Both the position numbers and the translations under genes were made by a program. From NCBI GenBank assembly GCA_041664265.1, contig JBAYLD010000001.1, forward strand, positions 134,358 through 198,357: 64,000 bases of DNA, in the 5' to 3' direction. The notes beneath the pieces are model-generated. The model worked only from the letters and a program-made list of their open reading frames with translations, made no database searches and was not told the origin of the DNA. Position 1 is the first letter of the stretch, and the number at the start of each line of letters is the position of its first letter. Below are positions 47,421-63,031 of the stretch, in pieces. Origin of the DNA: Minisyncoccota bacterium (lineage in GTDB: Bacteria; Patescibacteriota; Minisyncoccia; Phycocordibacterales; Phycocordibacteraceae).

Positions 47421-48231
47421 CCGTAAGGTGTCCGTAAGGTGTCACCTTACGGAATCAATAAAACGCTAGAAACCGTAAGGTGTCACCTTACGGAACATGC
47501 TACTATTACCGAATATGACAAAGAGAGACGTCCCGTTTGCTGTCGGGGAGTGGTACCACTGTTATAATCGTGGCATTGAGAAGCGTATCGTATTTGAAGA
47601 TATTCGAGATTATCACCGCTTCCTTGAGCTCCTTTATTTGGCGAATGATGAGTTTCCTCTCCGGCGTGACGATATCGGCCTATATAAATTTGAAGAGATA
47701 TTAAAGGTTCCTCGCGGCAAGAAATTAGTCGCTATTGGAGCATTCTGCTTGATGCCAAACCACTTCCACTTAGTTTTGAAAGAGGTTGTGGATGGAGGCA
47801 TTACCGCATTTATGCGGAAAATCGGGACGGCATATGCTCTGTATTTTAATGCACGGCACGGACGGACGGGAAACCTGTTCCTCAAGCCGTTTCGATCCCG
47901 CCATGTATCTACCGATCGCTACTTTCAGCACCTTATCAATTATGTGCACTGTAACCCAGCGGCGCTCTCTGAACCCGAGTGGAAAACCAGCCATGTTGTG
48001 GACCCTCAGTTCTTGGGAGAACAAATCGCCGCATACCCGTATTCAAGTCTTGGTACCCATGCGGGCGCACACACGCCGACCAGCGCTATCCTAGACGCGG
48101 AGGTGTTCTCTCTAGCGCGTACGGTTCAAATACAAAAGATGCTACAGGAAGCGCGACAGTATTATGCTGATTCCGACCTTTCCCTTCCGTAAGGTGTCAC
48201 CTTACATCTGCTGTAAGGTGACACCTTACGG
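47421..48231 (+). mobile_element. IS200/IS605-family (RAYT-like) element 2, with hairpin doublets at both ends
   Basis: Perfect palindrome ccgtaaggtgtcaccttacgg at 47432-47452 and 47473-47493 (left). Related hairpins at 48187-48205 and 48213-48231 (right). These differ from the element 1 hairpins. Confidence 0.65.
47497..48192 (+). CDS. Y1 HuH transposase, IS200-like / RAYT-like (paralog of 9544..10248)
   Basis: 231 aa. YHCYNRG, HuH MPNHFHLVL, Tyr region GNLFLKPFRSRHVSTDRYFQHLINYVHCNP. Confidence 0.65.
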   Translation: MLLLPNMTKRDVPFAVGEWYHCYNRGIEKRIVFEDIRDYHRFLELLYLANDEFPLRRDDIGLYKFEEILKVPRGKKLVAIGAFCLMPNHFHLVLKEVVDGGITAFMRKIGTAYALYFNARHGRTGNLFLKPFRSRHVSTDRYFQHLINYVHCNPAALSEPEWKTSHVVDPQFLGEQIAAYPYSSLGTHAGAHTPTSAILDAEVFSLARTVQIQKMLQEARQYYADSDLSLP

Positions 48232-48248
48232 AATGTGGTATAATAAGC

Positions 48249-48592
48249 GCGGACCGGGCTAAGCGATCGCTGGCGGCGTAACGCGCCGACTAGAGGAAAG
48301 TCCGAACATGCGCTCGCTGCAAGGTGAGCAAGAAAGGTAGCGGGTAACGCCCGTCGTCCGTGAGGATAGAGGTGACCACAGTGACGCCAAAACCGAGAGG
48401 TGAAGGGTTCCCTTCGGGGAATAATCTCGCCGCAAGACGAGGGTGCAACGAACAAATCCTTACCCGCATGCAAGGCCGTGTCCCGAGTCCGCCAACTGGT
48501 GGACGAGGGAAGTGCCGCTTGATCCTGAGAGCAATCGAAGGGCTAGATAAATGATCGCTCACGACAGAATTCGGCTTATCGGCCCGGTCCAC
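48249..48592 (+). ncRNA. rnpB: RNase P RNA, bacterial type A
   Basis: P1 pairing: 5' GGACCGGGC with 3' GCCCGGTCC. Conserved GAGGAAAGTCCGAACA (P4 5' strand), GGTAACGCCCG, and 3' region GGCTAGATAAATGATCGCTCACGACAGAATTCGGCTTATCGG, which closely matches E. coli M1 RNA GCCUAGAUGAAUGACUGUCCACGACAGAACCCGGCUUAUCGG. Confidence 0.85.
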
Positions 48593-48597
48593 ATACA

Positions 48598-48633: not shown

Positions 48634-49623
48634 CTACTTACTGACCGGAATTAATTTTGAAAGTTTATGCGCATTACCATGCCTCAACATACCGCGATAC
48701 GATGAGACGTTTCCCTCGCTCGGGTTCCCACTCACCGCTTTCAGCATCCGCCGCTTCGTGCTCGTGCGCAAAACGCGATGATCGGAGAAATGCACCCAGC
48801 CGAGGAAATCAACGCCCGAGGCGAATGTTTTGATGAAAACCTTGTCCGGATGGAGATCAAGCTTTAGCCGATCACGCAAGAATGCTCCTATAGGCTGGAG
48901 GACGTTACACAGATATGATCGGTCACGCGAAAGAATAACAAAATCATCGGAATAGCGGATATAATGGCGTGCTTTTAATTTGTGCTTCACGAACTGATCA
49001 AACTCATTCATATAGATATTCACGAGAAGTTGGCTCGTAAGATTCCCAAGCGGCAAACCCTTACCAAGACCGGTTGAATGAAAACTCTCAATTATGTTTT
49101 GCAGCAAGGCTATAATTCGTTCATCAGGAATATGCCTCCGTAAGATTTCGAGCAATATTTGCTGATCAATGGATGCAAAAAACTTTCTGATGTCACACTT
49201 AAGCACCCATGCGGTCCTCGCGTGGTTTTTACTCTCCTGACATGCATATCGCCTGAAGGCATTCATTGCGCGATGAGTCCCCTTCTCTAGCCGACAAGAG
49301 TATGAGTCGGTGATAAACGTGCTGTTGAAAACCGGATACAAAATTCTGTAGATAGCATGGTGCACCAACCGGTCGCGTACGCTCGCTTTATGTATGTCGC
49401 GCGGTTTTGGATCGCTGATCTTGAAATGGGTATACGAGCCATGTCGGTATGCACCTGAGACAAGATCCGAATGGAGTGTAAAAATATTCCGTACGAGATC
49501 GTATTCGAACGCCTGCACGTCTTTCTTTTTCTGCTTGCCGTGTAAGAACTCTTTCCATGCGTCGAGCAGGTTGTTGGTAGAAATGATATTGTCGTAGGAA
49601 TGGGAGTCACCGATTCTACTCAT
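48634..49623 (-). CDS. Diversity-generating retroelement reverse transcriptase
   Basis: The ORF runs to 49749; the likely start is MSRIGDSH at 49623. RT motifs LKCDIRKFFASID and YIRYSDDFVIL. The DGR-diagnostic motif GLPLGNLTSQLLVNIYMNEFDQFVKH ([ILV]GxxxSQ) is close to Bordetella bRT. No maturase or endonuclease domain. Confidence 0.85.
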   Translation of the reverse strand: MSRIGDSHSYDNIISTNNLLDAWKEFLHGKQKKKDVQAFEYDLVRNIFTLHSDLVSGAYRHGSYTHFKISDPKPRDIHKASVRDRLVHHAIYRILYPVFNSTFITDSYSCRLEKGTHRAMNAFRRYACQESKNHARTAWVLKCDIRKFFASIDQQILLEILRRHIPDERIIALLQNIIESFHSTGLGKGLPLGNLTSQLLVNIYMNEFDQFVKHKLKARHYIRYSDDFVILSRDRSYLCNVLQPIGAFLRDRLKLDLHPDKVFIKTFASGVDFLGWVHFSDHRVLRTSTKRRMLKAVSGNPSEGNVSSYRGMLRHGNAHKLSKLIPVSK

Positions 49624-50031
49624 ACCCTTGAACGTACCCCCCCCCGGACGATTCCGCAAGAAAAACTCGTGGCGGTCGTGTTGAAACTGAAAGAGACATA
49701 CCTTGCGTGGCAGATGGCGCTCCCACATGTCGCAAAAGCTCGACGGCAAACAATAGCCGCGCGCATTGACGGGGCACTTCTCGACACACTTGAATACGCA
49801 TTTCGAGCCGAATATCTCTCGGGACTGCTGAAAATTAAAGCAATCGAGGTATCAATCGAGAGACTCGATGTAGCCAAATTCTTTTTGCTGGTCGGATGGG
49901 AAAGCGATGCCATTACGAACGATCAGCATCTCCGTATAACGGGGCTTCTCATTGAGGCGAGCAAAATGCTCGTTGGTTGGAAGGCATATCTTGAAAAGAA
50001 AACTCCCGCGGATGAGGGCGGGAGAAAGTAA
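49600..50031 (+). CDS. Avd-like (accessory variability determinant, 23S rRNA IVS four-helix-bundle family) protein
   Basis: 143 aa from the ATG; an alternative GTG start at 49669 gives 120 aa. Basic helical protein. LKETYLAWQMALPHVAKARR and C-terminal ITGLLIEASKMLVGWKAYL resemble Avd motifs. It is divergent from the RT gene and antisense to the TR-RT spacer. Confidence 0.5.
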   Translation: MGVTDSTHTLERTPPRTIPQEKLVAVVLKLKETYLAWQMALPHVAKARRQTIAARIDGALLDTLEYAFRAEYLSGLLKIKAIEVSIERLDVAKFFLLVGWESDAITNDQHLRITGLLIEASKMLVGWKAYLEKKTPADEGGRK

Positions 50032-50037
50032 GACCTG

Positions 50038-50145
50038 TTTCGGACGAGAAGGCGATTGTCGGCGTTCCAGCGATTGCCGTTGTCGAGGCTGTTGACGTTC
50101 GCGTTCCAACCGCGCCCATCGCGGTTGACGTTGCCAACCGAGACG
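50038..50145 (-). repeat. DGR template repeat (TR)
   Basis: 108-nt match to the VR. In minus-strand sense it carries AAC/AAT codons (G N V N R D G R G W N A N V N S L D N G N R W N A D N R L L V R) at every variable position. Confidence 0.85.
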
Positions 50146-50354
50146 CTTCGTACTGCACACCATCCATGACACCTACGACGGCCACTGTCTTTCGAATACT
50201 CTCCAGACTGAATCTTGTTTGGGACATTACAGCCCGCCAGTGTGCGGCACCAACTTGTATTTCTTTTTTCGGGTGTTTCTTACCCGGAACCTCGCCACCT
50301 CAAGTCAAGCGTACTGCTTAGCCGGAAATGCCAGCGTGTTCGGATAAAAGTATA

Positions 50355-50382
50355 CCCCACACTTGAGTGATCGAGTGTGGGG
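50355..50382. repeat. GC-rich hairpin downstream of the VR (DGR homing-associated hairpin candidate)
   Basis: ccccacac ttgagtgatcga gtgtgggg. Located about 55-80 nt 3' of the VR end on the coding (minus) strand. Confidence 0.5.
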
Positions 50383-50415
50383 TACTACTGAAATTCAGAA
50401 TACAGAGACCAAGTG

Positions 50416-51120
50416 TCAGAGTTTCTGAGTGTCCAAGTTGCGGACGAGAAGGCGATAGTCGGCGCTCCAGCGATAGCCGCGGCCGAGGCTGCGGACGCCC
50501 GCGCCCCAACCGCGCCCATCGCGGCTGACGTAGCCGACCGAGACGGGATTCTTTGGATTTCCGGTCTCAATGAAGAAGAAATTCCCATACCCGTCGGTAC
50601 GCATCCCGGTCTCCTCACTTTTCTCGGTCTTCTCGACCATTTCTTCTGCCTCCGCAAGAGTCATGGTGTGACCTTGCTTGATGAGGTACTCACCGATAGT
50701 CGCGACATCCGTGTTTGTGTCGATACCGATGATACCGAGAACGGCAACGGCGGCCTCAATGAATGTCCACTCTCGCGAGGGAGCCAGGGTTGTAATGGTG
50801 CAGGCATCGGCGTTCGGCTGATCGGCAGGGAGCCAATTGTCGAAGTCGCTGTCGCGATACGTCCACCGCGAACCTGTGAAGCATTTCTTCGTTTTCTTTT
50901 CCTTAATCGCGGCGAGGCTAGTCGTTGCGCTTACGGAGAATAACGGATCGTGTTTCGCCGGCGGTACAGGCACGCTTTCCTTTTTCACAAACGGCTCTTC
51001 ACGACGAAGAAAGCGTTTTGCCTCCTCCTCGCTAATCGAACCGTTGTGAAGCTTTGTGACGAAATCCAGTGTGATACCGAAACGATCGCTCGCTTGGGTT
51101 CCCGAGCATGTTTCTAACAT
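50416..51120 (-). CDS. DGR target (variable) protein with a C-type-lectin/FGE-like C-terminal VR
   Basis: 234 aa. C-terminus ...GYVSRDGRGWGAGVRSLGRGYRWSADYRLLVRN is encoded by the VR and follows the RGGxW...R...N..R..GFR-like pattern of CLec-fold DGR targets. No signal peptide detected. Confidence 0.7.
   Translation of the reverse strand: MLETCSGTQASDRFGITLDFVTKLHNGSISEEEAKRFLRREEPFVKKESVPVPPAKHDPLFSVSATTSLAAIKEKKTKKCFTGSRWTYRDSDFDNWLPADQPNADACTITTLAPSREWTFIEAAVAVLGIIGIDTNTDVATIGEYLIKQGHTMTLAEAEEMVEKTEKSEETGMRTDGYGNFFFIETGNPKNPVSVGYVSRDGRGWGAGVRSLGRGYRWSADYRLLVRNLDTQKL
50438..50545 (-). repeat. DGR variable repeat (VR) at the 3' end of the target gene
   Basis: 17 TR/VR mismatches: 16 (15 in-repeat plus one at the 3' junction) are at TR adenines (minus strand) and 1 is a synonymous non-A change (gtt/gtc). 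The invariant 3' block cgccttctcgtccg is IMH-like. Confidence 0.85.
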
Positions 51121-51275: not shown

Positions 51276-53654
51276 CTATACAATCTCGCAGGTGCCGCCG
51301 GCGCAGGCGAGTTCTCGCTTCATATCCGATTCATCCTGCCGCTCATACGCAATAAGCTTAGAATAATCCACCCTCGGGAATCGGGTCATGCGCGCTTCAT
51401 ATTCTTCTTTCGTAATTGCCTCATAGGGCGCGAGGCGATACACGTGGTTGGCGCGCGGGAGGAACGAGAGCCCGCCGATAATCTCCCAATTCTTTTGTAT
51501 CCAATCAACGACACCGATCCATTCATCTTCGCTCACCGAGATGGTCGCCGAAGGGTTGTGTTCGGTGAAGTTCACTTTCACCCTCTTCCAGTACTCGAGC
51601 TGTTCGAGCGCCGAGAGGTCATCCTTGAATCGCGCCTCTTTAGAATGGTCGGGCGCCTTGACCGGGAACTCGAACACGAAGGTATTCGCCTCCTCCATCG
51701 ACTGCCCCACTTCTGGATAGTAGGGTACACCCTGATCGCGCATCAGCTTAAAGAGCGAGTCAGTCGCACTAATGCGGACGCGACGAATGTAGTAGGGCGC
51801 GTGACGCGGATGGATGCCCGAGGCGCAGTTGAAGGTCTGCGAGACCGTACCCGAGGGTTTGACCGCCGTCACCGAAAGCGAGCGCTCGATACTGAAGCGT
51901 TTTGCGTAGGTCACATTCGTCTTCACTGCCATATCGCGCACCTTGCGCATCACCTCTGGTTGTCGGGCGGCCGGCGAGTCCCACTGCCCAGTGATCGAGA
52001 CGCCGAGGAGACGCTCTGCACGGCAATGGTCAGTCCACTCTTTCGAAATGTAGCCAAATTTTGTGAGGGTCGACTGATAGGTGCCGAGGATCGCCGCGAG
52101 GCGCGCCTTGCGAAGGAGCGAGGCCTCCGTGTCCGGCGCACGCGCGATGATTTCCGAAAGATTACAAAATTGCTTCGATTGCAAGATAATCTCGGCGCAT
52201 GGGTTGGCGCCGATCGAGCCGCGAACAACACCGTCCTCGCCGATAAAGCCAACCTTCTTGAAGTGCTCGACGCGACGCTTCGGCATCGTGACCGCGAGCG
52301 AACCGCGGTTGAAGATGCCCCGCTCCCCGGAACCGCTCTTCATAAGCGCGACCCATTCGTCCATCAGCTCGGCATTGGTCGGCTGCATCTCGTAGACGGC
52401 AGAATTGTTCGCCACCGAGCGGTGCGGATCGGTCATATAGAATTGGCCCTTCTTGGCGTCGCGCATCTCGATATCATCAAGGTCAGAGAGCGAGATCATC
52501 GCGGTACGGCGGACGCCACCGGCGACCACGCATTCACCTATCTTACAGATGATGTCATGCGCATCAATAGTGCGGAGGCGGCGACCCTGGCGTGCGAGGA
52601 CGCGCTCCCGTGCAAAAGCGAGTAACGAACGCAGCGGCTCAGGGCCGCTCGCCTTCCCCCCCATCGTCTTCAAGCGCGCACCCGCAGGGCGCACCTTAGC
52701 GAAGTCGAAATTGACGTCCTTCCCGGCATACCAGGTCTGGAGGCCAAAGGTGAGCGCATCGCACCATCCCTCCTTCGAATCGGCGACGACGTGGGTCGGC
52801 AACTTCTGCCCTTTTTGCTTCATAATCTGCGGGAGCTGTTCGATGTTCTGACTCTCAACTGCGAAGCCGACGCCGCAACCCTGCATCGAGAGATACATGA
52901 TCTCGGCGAAGTCCTCGAGCTTCACGGGCGCGGTGAAGGTGCAGTTATAGGCACAGGTGTTGCAGCGGCGCGCCGCCTCGCCCGAAAATTGCATAAGGCG
53001 CATCGAAGGCATCACCTCCTGCTTCAAGATACCCATGCGCACCTCGGCATACTCTTTTTCAGTCAATTTGTTGCCGAGATTTTCGCGCATGAAGCTCACG
53101 TAGCGATCGACCGTCTCTACCCAGGTCTCGCGCCGACCCTCTTCGGGGATCCATTTTGCATACGTGCGCAGATAAACGAACTCACCAAGCGCATTGCCTG
53201 CAAAATACTTTTTGCTCTCTGCGGCAAGCTCGCGCACCCGCTCGGGAATCTCGACATGCGCTGCGCGTAGCTGTGCGCGCTTGTCGCGATAGAGGATGTA
53301 CGCCTTTGCCGTTTTCACATAATCATTGAGGATGAGATACTTCTCGACCGAGTCTTGCATGCCCTCGACCGTCGGGAGGAAGCCCTTATACTTCTTCGCG
53401 AATCGCCCAAGCTCGCCAGCCACCTGATGCGCTACAAGCACTGCATCATCTTGGCTGCCCTCTTCTGCTGCGGCCATCGCCTTCCAGATGGCGGCGGCAA
53501 TCTTATCAAAATCAAACGATACCAGCCGCCCATCTCGCTTCTCGACTTGCGGGATCATCTCACGATACCGTTGCGTCTCTTTTGAGATCGGCGCCTCCGC
53601 TGCGCGCGCGACCTTCGGGTGAACAGCAACGGAAACAGGGGCGGTTTTTGGCAT
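51276..53654 (-). CDS. nrdJ: Class II (adenosylcobalamin-dependent) ribonucleotide reductase with N-terminal ATP-cone
   Basis: 792 aa. ATP-cone (VEKRDGRLVSFDFDKIAAAIWKA), FCNLSEI, GGVRRTAMISLSDLDD, finger-loop region. Confidence 0.85.
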   Translation of the reverse strand: MPKTAPVSVAVHPKVARAAEAPISKETQRYREMIPQVEKRDGRLVSFDFDKIAAAIWKAMAAAEEGSQDDAVLVAHQVAGELGRFAKKYKGFLPTVEGMQDSVEKYLILNDYVKTAKAYILYRDKRAQLRAAHVEIPERVRELAAESKKYFAGNALGEFVYLRTYAKWIPEEGRRETWVETVDRYVSFMRENLGNKLTEKEYAEVRMGILKQEVMPSMRLMQFSGEAARRCNTCAYNCTFTAPVKLEDFAEIMYLSMQGCGVGFAVESQNIEQLPQIMKQKGQKLPTHVVADSKEGWCDALTFGLQTWYAGKDVNFDFAKVRPAGARLKTMGGKASGPEPLRSLLAFARERVLARQGRRLRTIDAHDIICKIGECVVAGGVRRTAMISLSDLDDIEMRDAKKGQFYMTDPHRSVANNSAVYEMQPTNAELMDEWVALMKSGSGERGIFNRGSLAVTMPKRRVEHFKKVGFIGEDGVVRGSIGANPCAEIILQSKQFCNLSEIIARAPDTEASLLRKARLAAILGTYQSTLTKFGYISKEWTDHCRAERLLGVSITGQWDSPAARQPEVMRKVRDMAVKTNVTYAKRFSIERSLSVTAVKPSGTVSQTFNCASGIHPRHAPYYIRRVRISATDSLFKLMRDQGVPYYPEVGQSMEEANTFVFEFPVKAPDHSKEARFKDDLSALEQLEYWKRVKVNFTEHNPSATISVSEDEWIGVVDWIQKNWEIIGGLSFLPRANHVYRLAPYEAITKEEYEARMTRFPRVDYSKLIAYERQDESDMKRELACAGGTCEIV

Positions 53655-53743: not shown

Positions 53744-54226
53744 CTACTCTGAAACGCGCTTGAAATTTTTCAACACGAGCGGTGTGCCCTGCTCAATGTT
53801 CTGCGAGCGCGCAAATCCCGCAGCAGTCTCAAGGACATATCGCGCCGGCGCCGATGGGTAAAAGACATTTGGATAGGTGGACGTCGCGACGTCTTCCTTA
53901 ACGGACACGACGTTCCCGTCAGAATCAAGCCAGAAGATGTCGATCGGCACGAGCATATCCTTCATCCATATGCCGTAATAGTCATCTTCTATAAAGACGA
54001 ACAGCATCCCATAGTTGCTTGGGAGGCTTTCTCGGCCCCCCAGACCCTTCTCTCGTGCGGTTGTCGTTGTTGCATACTCAAGCTTCAAGGACACCCCGCC
54101 AAACTCTGCGGTTGGCCTCTCTGACGCCGCCGGCTCCGCCGGCGGCGTTGATGTCCTATAGACAAAAAATATCGCCCCGCTCACCGCAACAGCTATGAGA
54201 AACACTCCATACAAATACCGCATCAT
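53744..54226 (-). CDS. DUF192-family (COG1430) protein, N-terminal TM anchor
   Basis: 160 aa. LKLEYATTTTAREKGLGGRESLPSNYGMLFVF...LVPIDIFWLDSDGNVV is typical of DUF192. Confidence 0.55.
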   Translation of the reverse strand: MMRYLYGVFLIAVAVSGAIFFVYRTSTPPAEPAASERPTAEFGGVSLKLEYATTTTAREKGLGGRESLPSNYGMLFVFIEDDYYGIWMKDMLVPIDIFWLDSDGNVVSVKEDVATSTYPNVFYPSAPARYVLETAAGFARSQNIEQGTPLVLKNFKRVSE

Positions 54227-62559: not shown

Positions 62560-62584
62560 ACAGAGCACTATACCTTGTTTTTTG

Positions 62585-62981
62585 TGGAGGTGTCGAGAGT
62601 CGAACTCGAGTCCGAATCCATCAATGAAAGCGAGTCTACGACGCATAGTCAGCGTTAATTTTAGGGCAGGATGCGAAGAACGCAGACGAAACCATTCCTG
62701 CCCGATCCCTTATTTAGACGCGCCGGGCGGGAGGCCGGGCATCGATCCTACAGAATATTCCGCCCCTGCCTCCGGCTGTAAGAACCCGAGAGGAGAGACG
62801 TCGCTAGGCGAGCGGTTAGGCTGCGTAGGCGAACGCGAAGTCACGCGCACCGAAGTACGGAGACTTCACGCTTGCAAGAGTGTTCTTGGCAAGTTTGGTT
62901 GCTTGTTGGATGTAAGTGTCATACAAGCTTGCACTGCGTCGCACGTCTTTCAAAGTACAGACCGTCAAAGCCGGTCACCCC
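62585..62981 (-). ncRNA. ssrA: tmRNA (transfer-messenger RNA)
   Basis: Minus-strand 5' GGGGGTGACCGGCTTTGACGG (E. coli GGGGCUGAUUCUGGAUUCGACGG). 3' GGATTCGGACTCGAGTTCGACTCTCGACACCTCCA tRNA-like T-arm and acceptor. Candidate tag ORF ...GCG CGT GAC TTC GCG TTC GCC TAC GCA GCC TAA ([10 protein letters not shown]). Directly downstream of smpB. Confidence 0.8.
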
Positions 62982-63031
62982 CTGTCAATTGATACGCACG
63001 AATGCCTACAAACTGACAGTGATTGATCGAA

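Follow-up and report, generated by a model that had tools for sequence, protein, structure and literature searches.

How does a DGR make and prime its template RNA when the accessory gene avd lies antisense within the interval between the TR and the reverse transcriptase (RT) gene? To our knowledge, all mechanistic understanding of DGR priming comes from the Bordetella RNA, in which the functional RNA lies 3' of the TR. The locus described here, part of a 64,000-nucleotide stretch of DNA from a Minisyncoccota bacterium (the window), has avd on the opposite strand at just that place. An earlier note on this DNA had called the layout non-canonical and proposed either dual use of the sequence or a different priming arrangement. 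The gene layout is not new: it is already on record as the one that most CPR DGRs have, and so is no discovery. What may interest DGR specialists is the RNA anatomy behind it. The reading that we moderately favor is that of a CPR DGR of architecture B3 whose TR RNA would be self-contained and terminator-ended, with RT and avd expressed from signals of their own.

Cassette layout and strands

Read along the minus strand, the cassette runs target(VR) - TR - (avd, plus strand) - RT, the order given in the earlier note. The target gene (50416-51120, minus strand, 234 aa) carries the VR (50437-50545) near its C-terminal end, 21 nt ahead of the stop codon, and is preceded by a promoter-like TTGACG-18-TATAAT (51242-51213). 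A spacer of 291 nt, previously put at 290, separates the VR from the TR (50037-50145, minus strand), with which it forms direct repeat D1. Only 5 nt lie between the avd stop at 50031 and the TR; the gap of 6 nt noted before is off by one. In related loci the TR begins 4-36 nt beyond that stop. The avd gene occupies 49669-50031 on the plus strand (120 aa from GTG 49669) and stands head-to-head with RT (48634-49623, minus strand, 329 aa from ATG 49623) across a 45-nt intergenic region (49624-49668), exactly the distance formerly estimated between the two starts. This divergent region contains a run of nine C (49637-49645; G9 on the RT strand). TR and RT, on one strand, are 414 nt apart.

That RT, TR and VR share the minus strand, as had been proposed, is borne out by both the protein and the repeats. 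The RT matches Pfam RVT_1 (E=1e-22) and an NCBIfam model of group-II-intron-type RTs (E=6e-42, under that model's cut-off). LGNLTSQ, a putative DGR RT motif, is seen in its translation, and the RTs of 22 genome loci and 80 metagenome loci share 58-75% identity with the protein. The TR and VR, each 109 nt long, are 85% identical; since 15 of their 16 mismatches fall at TR adenines in the minus-strand reading, both repeats are sense on that strand. The GC-rich, IMH-like stretch at the 3' end of the repeat, CGCCTTCTCGTCCG, is identical in TR and VR. A-biased TR/VR pairs recur in 18 genome loci, and the A-to-N differences are consistent with past mutagenic retrohoming. The target protein matched no Pfam or NCBIfam family; its homologues occupy the equivalent position in related loci.

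Order and orientation are repeated in all 22 genome loci that include the RT side, and the divergent RT/avd arrangement in all 62 metagenome loci with enough DNA, giving 84 of 84 related loci. The genome loci, 23 of 23, derive from Patescibacteria or uncultured candidate-phylum MAGs, two of which are given only as 'bacterium isolate'; the groups represented include Kaiserbacteria, Paceibacteria, Adlerbacteria and 'Saccharibacteria'. A close relative, MFLS01000009, is found among RIFCSP Kaiserbacteria contigs. No HRDC, MSL or CH1-type gene is present in the cassette, the ORFs lying between target and RT matching no family. Such a layout is already catalogued as architecture B3, 'TR-(avd)-RT' with parentheses denoting the reverse strand, which makes up 90% of 126 CPR DGRs (Wu et al., Nucleic Acids Res 2018, PMC5758913); the assignment here follows their definition of order and orientation. 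The layout is thus usual in CPR and non-canonical only relative to the Bordetella prototype. By its structural features, the locus belongs among the ordinary chromosomal DGRs of CPR/Patescibacteria type.

The avd gene and its product

The plus-strand ORF (49600-50031) encodes 143 aa from ATG 49600, and the JGI gene call (P0001) is the identical protein (100%) started at GTG 49669, 120 aa. Because the length of the poly-C run varies, only 4 of 22 related loci have ATG 49600 in the avd frame, close to the chance level, and the 143-aa version was rejected. The Val codon at 49669 also varies across loci (GTG, GTC or GTT), so GTG 49669 is a tentative start.

The product has 76 homologues (50-100% identity, E down to 1e-69), and in the family alignment its amino acids are conserved while synonymous sites diverge. 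An HMM comparison returned alignments over nearly the whole length of both Avd profiles, at scores under the curated thresholds: 17.1 bits against a cut-off of 40 for Pfam bAvd (PF22296; E=0.008) and 24.5 bits against a cut-off of 80 for NCBIfam DivGenRetAVD (NF033474; E=2.6e-5). Among family members, 27 of 40 match bAvd at E<=0.01, the best at 8.7e-8. When PDB sequences were searched with the Avd-family profile, Bordetella Avd was not found and a single chance match appeared (E=0.86); homology to Bordetella Avd rests on the fold and the family HMMs. The AF2 model (pLDDT 91.4) comprises four main helices and a one-turn helix at 23-26. Foldseek superimposes it on Bordetella Avd 4dwl with TM 0.80/0.89, rmsd 1.8 A, probability 1.0 and E ~4e-3. 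Its best PDB matches are 2rld, 2gsc and 4dwl (TM range 0.77-0.91), and the DGR RNP entries 8ub7 and 8ube are also matched. Sequence identity to 2rld, 2gsc and 4dwl is only 6-17%, which together with the sub-threshold family scores marks this clade as a divergent branch.

The most conserved part of the product is residues 96-110, and the last ~12 codons encode a variable tail of low model confidence. A better candidate on the minus strand was also sought, and the minus-strand ORFs of the region gave no Pfam match. Family, fold and locus evidence thus uphold the claim that the sole Avd-like ORF is a plus-strand one lying between TR and RT. This avd is a genuine protein gene under selection and a distant member of the Avd four-helix-bundle family.

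Structured RNA on the TR strand

Abutting the 5' side of the TR is a structured RNA domain of ~196 nt (50146-50341, minus strand), made of blocks conserved across 19 loci. Its RNAalifold consensus fold has 36 pairs, 19 of them with compensatory changes; 97.2% are paired, compared with 36-44% when the alignment is slid, and none of 500 shuffles reaches 97.2%. Four helices can be read on the minus strand: P1 (50341-50287), P2 (50250-50239 pairing with 50161-50150, 12 bp), P3 (50235-50222) and P4 (50208-50205 pairing with 50190-50187). Helix P2 ends 4 nt before the TR, and the partner of its TR-adjacent segment lies ~90 nt further upstream; both sides have changed in 8 of its pairs in the first set of loci and in 10 in independent loci. 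A covariance model of the domain, R1, was run on 59 loci outside its building set; 57 contain a single match, which lies on the TR strand. For these independent loci, in an alignment fitted to R1, 95.4% are paired versus 34-54% for slid alignments, and compensatory changes are seen at 33 of the 36 pairs. The domain had no match in Rfam 15 at E<=1, and a scan of 49550-50450 gave nothing at the gathering threshold nor at E<=1.

On the 3' side, a 12-nt linker leads from the TR to a GC-rich hairpin (50024-50003) followed by UUUUCUUUUC at 50002-49993. The whole element (49993-50024, minus strand) is antisense to the last ~12 avd codons. Its seven pairs (six GC) and 8-nt loop, followed by TTTTCTTTTC, were terminator-like in a pattern scan. 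The hairpin was scored in 22 of 24 first-set loci, the remaining two (L014 and L020) being read by eye, and a U-tract lies directly 3' of it in every first-set locus, again by eye in those two. It is also present in 52 of 62 metagenome loci. Across loci, stems of 7-13 bp and loops of 3-12 nt vary freely in sequence, and in nearly all loci at least four U directly follow the stem. In more distant loci the U-tract is often only 4-5 U long before a G or C, so termination may be partial, with read-through into antisense avd and RT possible. RNAalifold over the TR 3' side and 115 nt of avd antisense found the hairpin as the only conserved structure. Its cells are 95.8% paired versus 29-68% when slid, a value reached by 0 of 500 shuffles, and six of its seven pairs show compensatory changes. 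The hairpin is assigned to the minus strand because its U-G pairs work only there.

The coding sequence across from the hairpin carries a matching signature. Across avd and RT the identity of synonymous codons is ~0.39-0.43, rising to 0.71-0.74 only in the last avd codons (first set). Among 63 sequences it is fixed at 0.89 for E109, 1.00 for K111 and 0.88 for T112, versus a baseline of 0.39, and codons 100-108 score 0.28-0.53 versus 0.39 overall. The remaining ~100 codons diverge at synonymous sites to the baseline level, and their antisense strand has no conserved structure. The earlier idea of a TR-RT spacer RNA that is the antisense of avd, and hence of dual use, thus holds over the last ~12 codons, where the hairpin covaries, and fails for the rest of the gene. 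What is observed on the TR strand, in order, is a covarying structured domain of ~196 nt, the 109-nt TR, the 12-nt linker and a covarying hairpin with its U-tract.

Two further regions carry putative expression signals. Between the target gene and the 5' domain, a hairpin and TATACT (50349-50384, minus strand) lie 3' of the VR and the target stop. The hairpin is inverted repeat I1 (50384-50353), with 14-nt arms that are 93% complementary; its 3' arm overlaps TATACT (50354-50349), and the conserved RNA block starts 7 nt past this box. The I1 stem sequence differs among loci and GGTAYAAT/TATAMT is kept. I1 could be either the target-gene terminator, corresponding to the post-IMH hairpin of DGRs, or an element preceding a -10-like box for the TR RNA, and TATACT would in the latter case be a candidate promoter -10.

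In the RT/avd intergenic region, the minus strand of the window holds a promoter-like TTGCGG-N17-TACGTT-N7-ATG upstream of RT. Of 89 related loci, 82 carry a run of at least five G on the RT strand (usually 9-10 long, with extremes of 5 and 12), and only 24 have the strict TTGCGG/TACGTT-type pattern. A poly-G within the promoter spacer and a leaderless RT mRNA would tentatively fit the window and its close relatives. On the plus strand, a putative extended -10 TGATAT for avd sits within RT codons 12-14, which are invariant in the first set of loci. A TGATAY motif occurs in only 34 of 66 metagenome loci; TGATAT may tentatively be taken as the avd promoter -10.

The template RNA and known DGR systems

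With a structured domain upstream of the TR, the TR RNA is probably self-contained and ~350 nt long. The favored reading takes its RNA ends, terminator activity and promoters from sequence prediction: the TR RNA would be free-standing and non-coding, running roughly from 50341 to 49995. Its 5' end would lie just past the TATACT box and its 3' end at the hairpin and U-tract, which would act as an intrinsic terminator. Positioning RT-Avd and delimiting the cDNA would fall to RNA elements of the 5' domain, with P2 as a candidate stop for cDNA synthesis. RT and avd would each have expression signals of their own around the poly-G/C intergenic region, and RT need not share the TR transcript through antisense avd.

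A stronger form of this reading is that the template RNA of B3-type CPR DGRs is permuted relative to that of Bordetella, a ~350-nt ncRNA with a protein-binding and cDNA-bounding domain at its 5' end and a hairpin and U-tract, antisense to avd, at its 3' end, which would imply unlike priming. We hold this tentatively, as a serious possibility at somewhat less than even chances. If true, it would account for the presence of avd between TR and RT on the opposite strand. The different priming arrangement that had been envisaged fares accordingly: an RNA organized unlike that of Bordetella is plausible, and it would involve structured RNA upstream of the TR rather than the arrangement first pictured.

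Searches for a primer and its partners gave the following. A Bordetella-like duplex between upstream GGAUGG and spacer CCANCC, the antisense of avd Gly-Trp codons, was considered and rejected, as its variable position shows no covariation; in the window itself it leaves an A-A mismatch, and the GGAUGG segment belongs to helix P2. The U-tract UUUUCUUUU could form eight base pairs with GAAAAAAGAAA, a conserved sequence within the 5' domain; this pairing is unsupported, as the variants in L013 and L021 lack compensation and there is no cis-specific signal. When all windows of the 5' domain were compared with the TR 3' end for a primer strand, the best z was only 3.4, at 14 of 46 loci. Neither a primer:template duplex nor cis-specific complementarity of the 5' domain to the TR 3' end or the U-tract was found, and no covarying complement to the TR 3' end emerged, including in the downstream spacer.

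The hairpin and U-tract resemble an intrinsic terminator. A rather unlikely alternative, though the best of the rivals, is that they are instead an Avd-binding element or a stabilizer of the convergent avd mRNA, the TR RNA ending elsewhere. The hairpin occupies the position of the Bordetella Avd-binding stem-loop (Sp 3-33), of which it would be the positional counterpart and, by position only, a candidate Avd site; moreover, the C that is kept inside UUUUCUUUU suggests that a specific sequence, and not just a run of U, is recognized, and U-tracts are short in the more distant loci. The free variation of stems and loops, however, is typical of terminators and unlike a specifically recognized stem-loop, U residues follow straight after the stem in nearly all loci, and there is no constrained RNA downstream. 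Nor does the avd strand have a U-run 3' of the hairpin, which therefore cannot terminate avd.

Less probable still is a Bordetella-like operon RNA in which one transcript spans TR and RT and the ~414-nt spacer works as an Sp RNA, the whole avd antisense being dual-coded. This spacer would carry the primer strand, thumb ring and RT-binding stem-loop, with the hairpin serving only for Avd binding. The comparative record speaks for it: apart from a short upstream avd strand, the Bordetella elements are all confined to the 140 nt that follow the TR. Stem-loops shortly after the TR are reported in 207 of 278 Avd-containing DGRs, including those of CPR, along with upstream/downstream duplexes (Handa et al.). 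Bordetella-like elements have also been inferred within 100 nt downstream of the TR for many DGRs, CPR included (Handa et al.), which counts against the model preferred here. Residues 96-110 of Avd, being the most conserved part of the protein, could hide RNA constraint, and an independent RT promoter is not robustly conserved. On the other side, synonymous sites beyond the last ~12 avd codons are at baseline, RNAalifold finds no conserved structure past the hairpin, and the U-tract directly follows the hairpin in all first-set loci. Through the covarying P2, the segment just upstream of the TR has its partner in the 5' domain rather than in downstream sequence, and the GGAUGG:CCANCC candidate does not covary.

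Finally, it is highly improbable that the plus-strand ORF is a chance ORF or an unrelated small protein in a DGR without accessory protein (architecture A): sub-threshold Pfam and NCBIfam scores and the unproductive PDB sequence search would suit that view, and they are outweighed by 76 homologues at 50-100% identity with a conserved protein and diverging synonymous sites, bAvd matches in 27 of 40 members down to 8.7e-8, a confident four-helix bundle whose top PDB matches are Avd-fold proteins including Bordetella Avd, and an ORF that adjoins the DGR RT in 84 of 84 loci.

The locus and its proposed self-contained, terminator-ended TR RNA can be set against several known systems. The closest relatives in gene layout are the B3 DGRs (PMC5758913), which share the core order and orientation, the lack of other accessory genes and the CPR host range, with no gene-layout difference from the present locus; transcription units and RNA elements of B3 are not described in the text of Wu et al. 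2018. In the present clade, the sequence past the TR is constrained for only ~45 nt, up to a terminator-like end, and a ~196-nt covarying domain precedes the TR. If this 5' domain carries the RT/Avd-docking and cDNA-stop roles, nature's most abundant DGR class would use a differently organized template RNA. If the permuted arrangement is real, the domain would moreover be a new structured RNA class, present in hundreds of metagenomic loci and without a match in Rfam 15. The predicted RNA boundaries, ~50341 to 49995, would make the permuted model directly testable by reconstitution.

At the level of the protein fold, the avd product shares its four-helix bundle with 2rld (BT_0352, deposited as 'S23 ribosomal protein family') and 2gsc (Xcc0516). 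The DGR of Bordetella phage BPP-1, of architecture B1, places the elements that position RT-Avd and bound the cDNA in a 140-nt spacer downstream of the TR (Handa et al., PMC6182149; bioRxiv 10.1101/2023.10.23.563531). Both systems have an RT with an Avd four-helix bundle, A-specific TR-to-VR differences, and a TR and VR that share the same GC-rich sequence at their 3' ends. Both also have a stem-loop a few nucleotides past the TR (Avd-binding in Bordetella) and a duplex abutting the TR on its 5' side (the cDNA-stop duplex in Bordetella). Unlike in BPP-1, avd is here on the opposite strand and downstream of the TR, and from ~45 nt past the TR onward nothing indicates a conserved structured spacer of 140 nt: no conserved structure was found in the region corresponding to the Bordetella elements at 45-140 nt (primer strand, stop-duplex strand, thumb ring and RT-binding stem-loop). 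The TR-adjacent duplex, P2, consists entirely of upstream sequence, whereas that of Bordetella joins upstream and downstream strands; likewise, a ~196-nt structured domain precedes the TR here, whereas Bordetella needs only ~20 nt of upstream RNA. Bordetella cis-primes from spacer A56, and no corresponding priming site is identifiable in the present locus.

A precedent for a stand-alone template RNA comes from Trichodesmium erythraeum, in which the TR is a discrete, abundant ncRNA of 265 nt with its own transcription start (Pfreundt et al. 2014, PMC4143802). That TR differs in lying downstream of the RT and in serving 12 targets. Its RNA is nonetheless of the type proposed here, established by experiment there and predicted from sequence in the CPR locus.

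Cassette layout and identity of the Avd-like gene

Read on the minus strand, the cassette begins with a target gene of 234 amino acids (50416-51120, called as an ORF) that contains the VR (50437-50545). A 291-nt interval separates the VR from the TR (50037-50145), and the RT gene lies beyond (48634-49623, ATG at 49623; Pfam RVT_1, E=1e-22). The TR and VR, detected as direct repeats of each other, span 109 nt with 16 mismatches, 15 of which fall at TR adenines read on the minus strand. Such A-biased mismatches are the DGR signature, and they fix the minus strand as the sense strand. As flagged in the earlier note, an Avd-like ORF of 143 amino acids lies between the TR and the RT on the plus strand (49600-50031); the JGI gene call for an identical protein starts at GTG 49669 and gives 120 amino acids. 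The gap between this GTG and the RT start is 45 nt, matching the earlier estimate, and the stop codon is 5 nt, not 6, from the TR. With position, strand and distances as measured, the original observation is correct.

The ORF scores below the family cut-offs with near-whole profiles aligned, at 17.1 bits against Pfam bAvd (E=0.008, cut-off 40) and 24.5 bits against NCBIfam DivGenRetAVD (E=2.6e-5, cut-off 80). From the ORF alone, the profile evidence reads as weak but consistent. Its 76 homologues are 50-100% identical to it, and bAvd is matched by 27 of the 40 that were aligned (best 8.7e-8). A confident AlphaFold model built on an alignment of homologues (pLDDT 91.4) shows four main helices, with one further turn of helix at 23-26. 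In the PDB it is closest to the four-helix-bundle proteins 2rld and 2gsc and to Bordetella Avd 4dwl (TM 0.80/0.89, rmsd 1.8 A for the last), and cryo-EM entries of DGR RNPs are also among its structural matches. A search of PDB sequences with the Avd-family profile found nothing, so the ORF family is a divergent branch of Avd. Rival candidates were sought on the minus strand, where the ORFs of the region match no family. Neither outcome that the earlier note named as refuting, a lack of Avd homology or a better candidate on the minus strand, was observed, and the assignment of the ORF as Avd is supported.

With each species represented by one genome, a scan returned 23 loci, all from Patescibacteria/CPR genomes. 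The RT diverges from avd, with TR and target next on the RT strand, in every genome locus that includes the RT side; 18 of these carry an A-biased TR/VR pair beginning 4-36 nt past the avd stop. Metagenomes were scanned separately with the RT as seed, giving more than 562 relatives, and Avd adjoins the RT on the opposite strand in all 62 kept loci with enough DNA. Wu et al. 2018 (PMC5758913) named this architecture B3, 'TR-(avd)-RT', where parentheses denote the reverse strand, and noted that a single transcription unit is not enough for some DGRs. The layout, which had been called non-canonical, is therefore ordinary for this kind of organism, and the antisense-avd headline is a rediscovery of the standard CPR cassette. 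The locus is one more B3 member, and its layout is known.

The antisense strand of avd and the hairpin after the TR

A structured, functional antisense RNA would be expected to constrain synonymous sites in avd. Along avd, the synonymous codon identity of 24 loci stays at 0.33-0.45, rising to 0.71-0.74 in the last 15 codons. Across 63 sequences it is 0.39 over codons 1-100, and the excess is limited to E109 (0.89), K111 (1.00), T112 (0.88) and P113 (0.65). The RT gene gives an avd-like baseline, 0.43 overall and 0.27-0.65 in 10-codon windows. On the minus strand, RNAalifold over the TR 3' end and 115 nt of avd antisense yields essentially one conserved structure, the hairpin right after the TR, besides which there is only a 2-bp helix upstream of the TR. 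The proposed dual use of the spacer thus holds for approximately 40 nt, the hairpin and U-tract; the remainder stays at the synonymous baseline, with no further conserved structure in the 115 nt folded, and neither measure gives a sign of a Bordetella-like spacer beyond this overlap. By these sequence comparisons, the antisense of avd is mostly not functional RNA.

The GC-rich hairpin (50024-50003, minus strand) was found by RNAalifold and pattern scan. The U-tract UUUUCUUUUC lies directly 3' of it (50002-49993, minus strand), and the pattern scan labelled the two terminator-like. Both were scored in 22 of the 24 loci of the first set and recognized by eye in the other two (L014 and L020), with stem and loop sequences varying freely; by our own criteria, the hairpin is present in 52 of 62 metagenome loci. 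Its pairing covaries: 95.8% of cells are paired versus 29-68% when slid, none of 500 shuffles is as high, six of the seven pairs have compensatory changes, and the frequent U-G pairs are workable on the minus strand only. The U-tract is antisense to the conserved Avd residues E-K-K-T and the stem to the variable, low-confidence C-terminal tail, and the avd stop codon shifts relative to the stem between loci. The hairpin occupies the position of the Bordetella Avd-binding stem-loop Sp 3-33. In 207 of 278 Avd-containing DGRs, CPR ones among them, Handa et al. reported a stem-loop of this kind shortly after the TR. The hairpin could plausibly serve both as terminator and as Avd-binding site.

A structured RNA upstream of the TR

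The earlier note raised dual use of the TR-RT spacer or a different priming arrangement; the conserved structured RNA is instead on the other side of the TR. The target-TR interval is the cassette's most conserved non-coding sequence. RNAalifold folds the stretch that runs from GAACACGCUGGCAU (50341) up to the TR into 36 predicted pairs, of which 19 carry compensatory changes; paired cells make up 97.2%, versus 36-44% when slid, and none of 500 shuffles is as high. A covariance model built from 18 loci was run on 59 loci outside the model set and matches 57 of them, each time at a single site and on the TR/RT strand (E 1e-43 to 1e-6). In an alignment fitted to the model, those loci have 95.4% of cells paired (34-54% when slid) and compensatory changes at 33 of the 36 pairs. 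Rfam 15 has no match to this domain at E<=1, and the domain is possibly a DGR-associated structured RNA not described before.

The domain (50146-50341, minus strand) spans approximately 196 nt next to the TR and comprises four covarying helices, P1-P4, rather than loose spacer. P2 pairs 50161-50150, 12 nt that end 4 nt before the TR, with 50250-50239. Loci L001 and L012 share an insertion of approximately 58 nt (GAGCGAC...TTAGAAAAATGAAG...) between P3 and P4, at columns 141-198 of the RNAalifold alignment, pointing to either an additional, optional hairpin or a small mobile insertion.

The domain starts 7 nt past a conserved TATAMT box, which follows the target-gene hairpin. This hairpin (50349-50384, minus strand) lies past the VR and the target stop; its stem varies from locus to locus and its 3' arm overlaps the box. 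It may act at once as target-gene terminator, DGR post-IMH hairpin and promoter region of the TR RNA.

Expression, genomic surroundings and known systems

Expression of RT and avd would come from the 45-nt divergent region with its conserved G/C homopolymer, and read-through from the TR into the RT is possible. Promoter readings of this region fit the window and its close relatives, not the wider set. The homopolymer (49637-49645, C9 on the plus and G9 on the minus strand) recurs at this position in 82 of 89 related loci, mostly 9-10 nt long (range 5-12). Its length sets whether the conserved upstream ATG (49600) is in the avd frame, and alters how far apart the two halves of a promoter-like TTGCNN...TANNNT pair stand upstream of the RT. 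The run may act as a phase-variable switch or in ribosome binding, or may be mere homopolymer assembly noise. Nearby (49582-49602), RT codons His8, Asn12, Ile13 and Ile14 are each one fixed codon in the 15 closest loci (baseline synonymous identity 0.43); on the plus strand they read TGATAT...ATG, resembling an extended -10 box placed 7-10 nt ahead of an ATG. Just 34 of the 66 more distant loci share the motif.

A bacterial class A RNase P RNA (48251-48594, plus strand; 114.5 bits, gathering score 100) lies on the other strand from the RT, 40 nt past its stop codon, placing the DGR among core housekeeping RNA genes. The wider surroundings resemble a cellular chromosome and not a phage, with a tmRNA gene (62582-62982), a B12-dependent (class II) ribonucleotide reductase with ATP-cone (51276-53654) and a DUF192 gene (53744-54226), all on the minus strand, and nine tRNA genes. 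An IS200-like Y1 transposase ORF (47497-48192, plus strand; Pfam Y1_Tnp, E=2.8e-5) is overlapped, then followed, by two near-identical 15-nt palindromes (TAAGGTGTCACCTTA ... TAAGGTGACACCTTA, 48183-48232), an arrangement recalling REP elements paired with a RayT-type transposase.

Downstream of the TR, no counterpart of the Bordetella-type primer strand, cDNA stop, thumb ring or RT-binding stem-loop is detectable; these elements would therefore have to sit in the 5' domain, where a search for the cDNA primer strand found none. The Bordetella 'stop' duplex likewise abuts the TR, but its partner strand is the downstream spacer, whereas that of P2 is upstream. Set against Wu et al., Handa et al. 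and the Trichodesmium study, the RNA anatomy may be new. The TR RNA predicted here is probably self-contained, at approximately 350 nt, running from the 5' structured domain through the TR and the 3' hairpin to the U-tract. The Trichodesmium TR (PMC4143802), made as a separate 265-nt ncRNA from a start site of its own, provides a precedent for such a stand-alone TR RNA.
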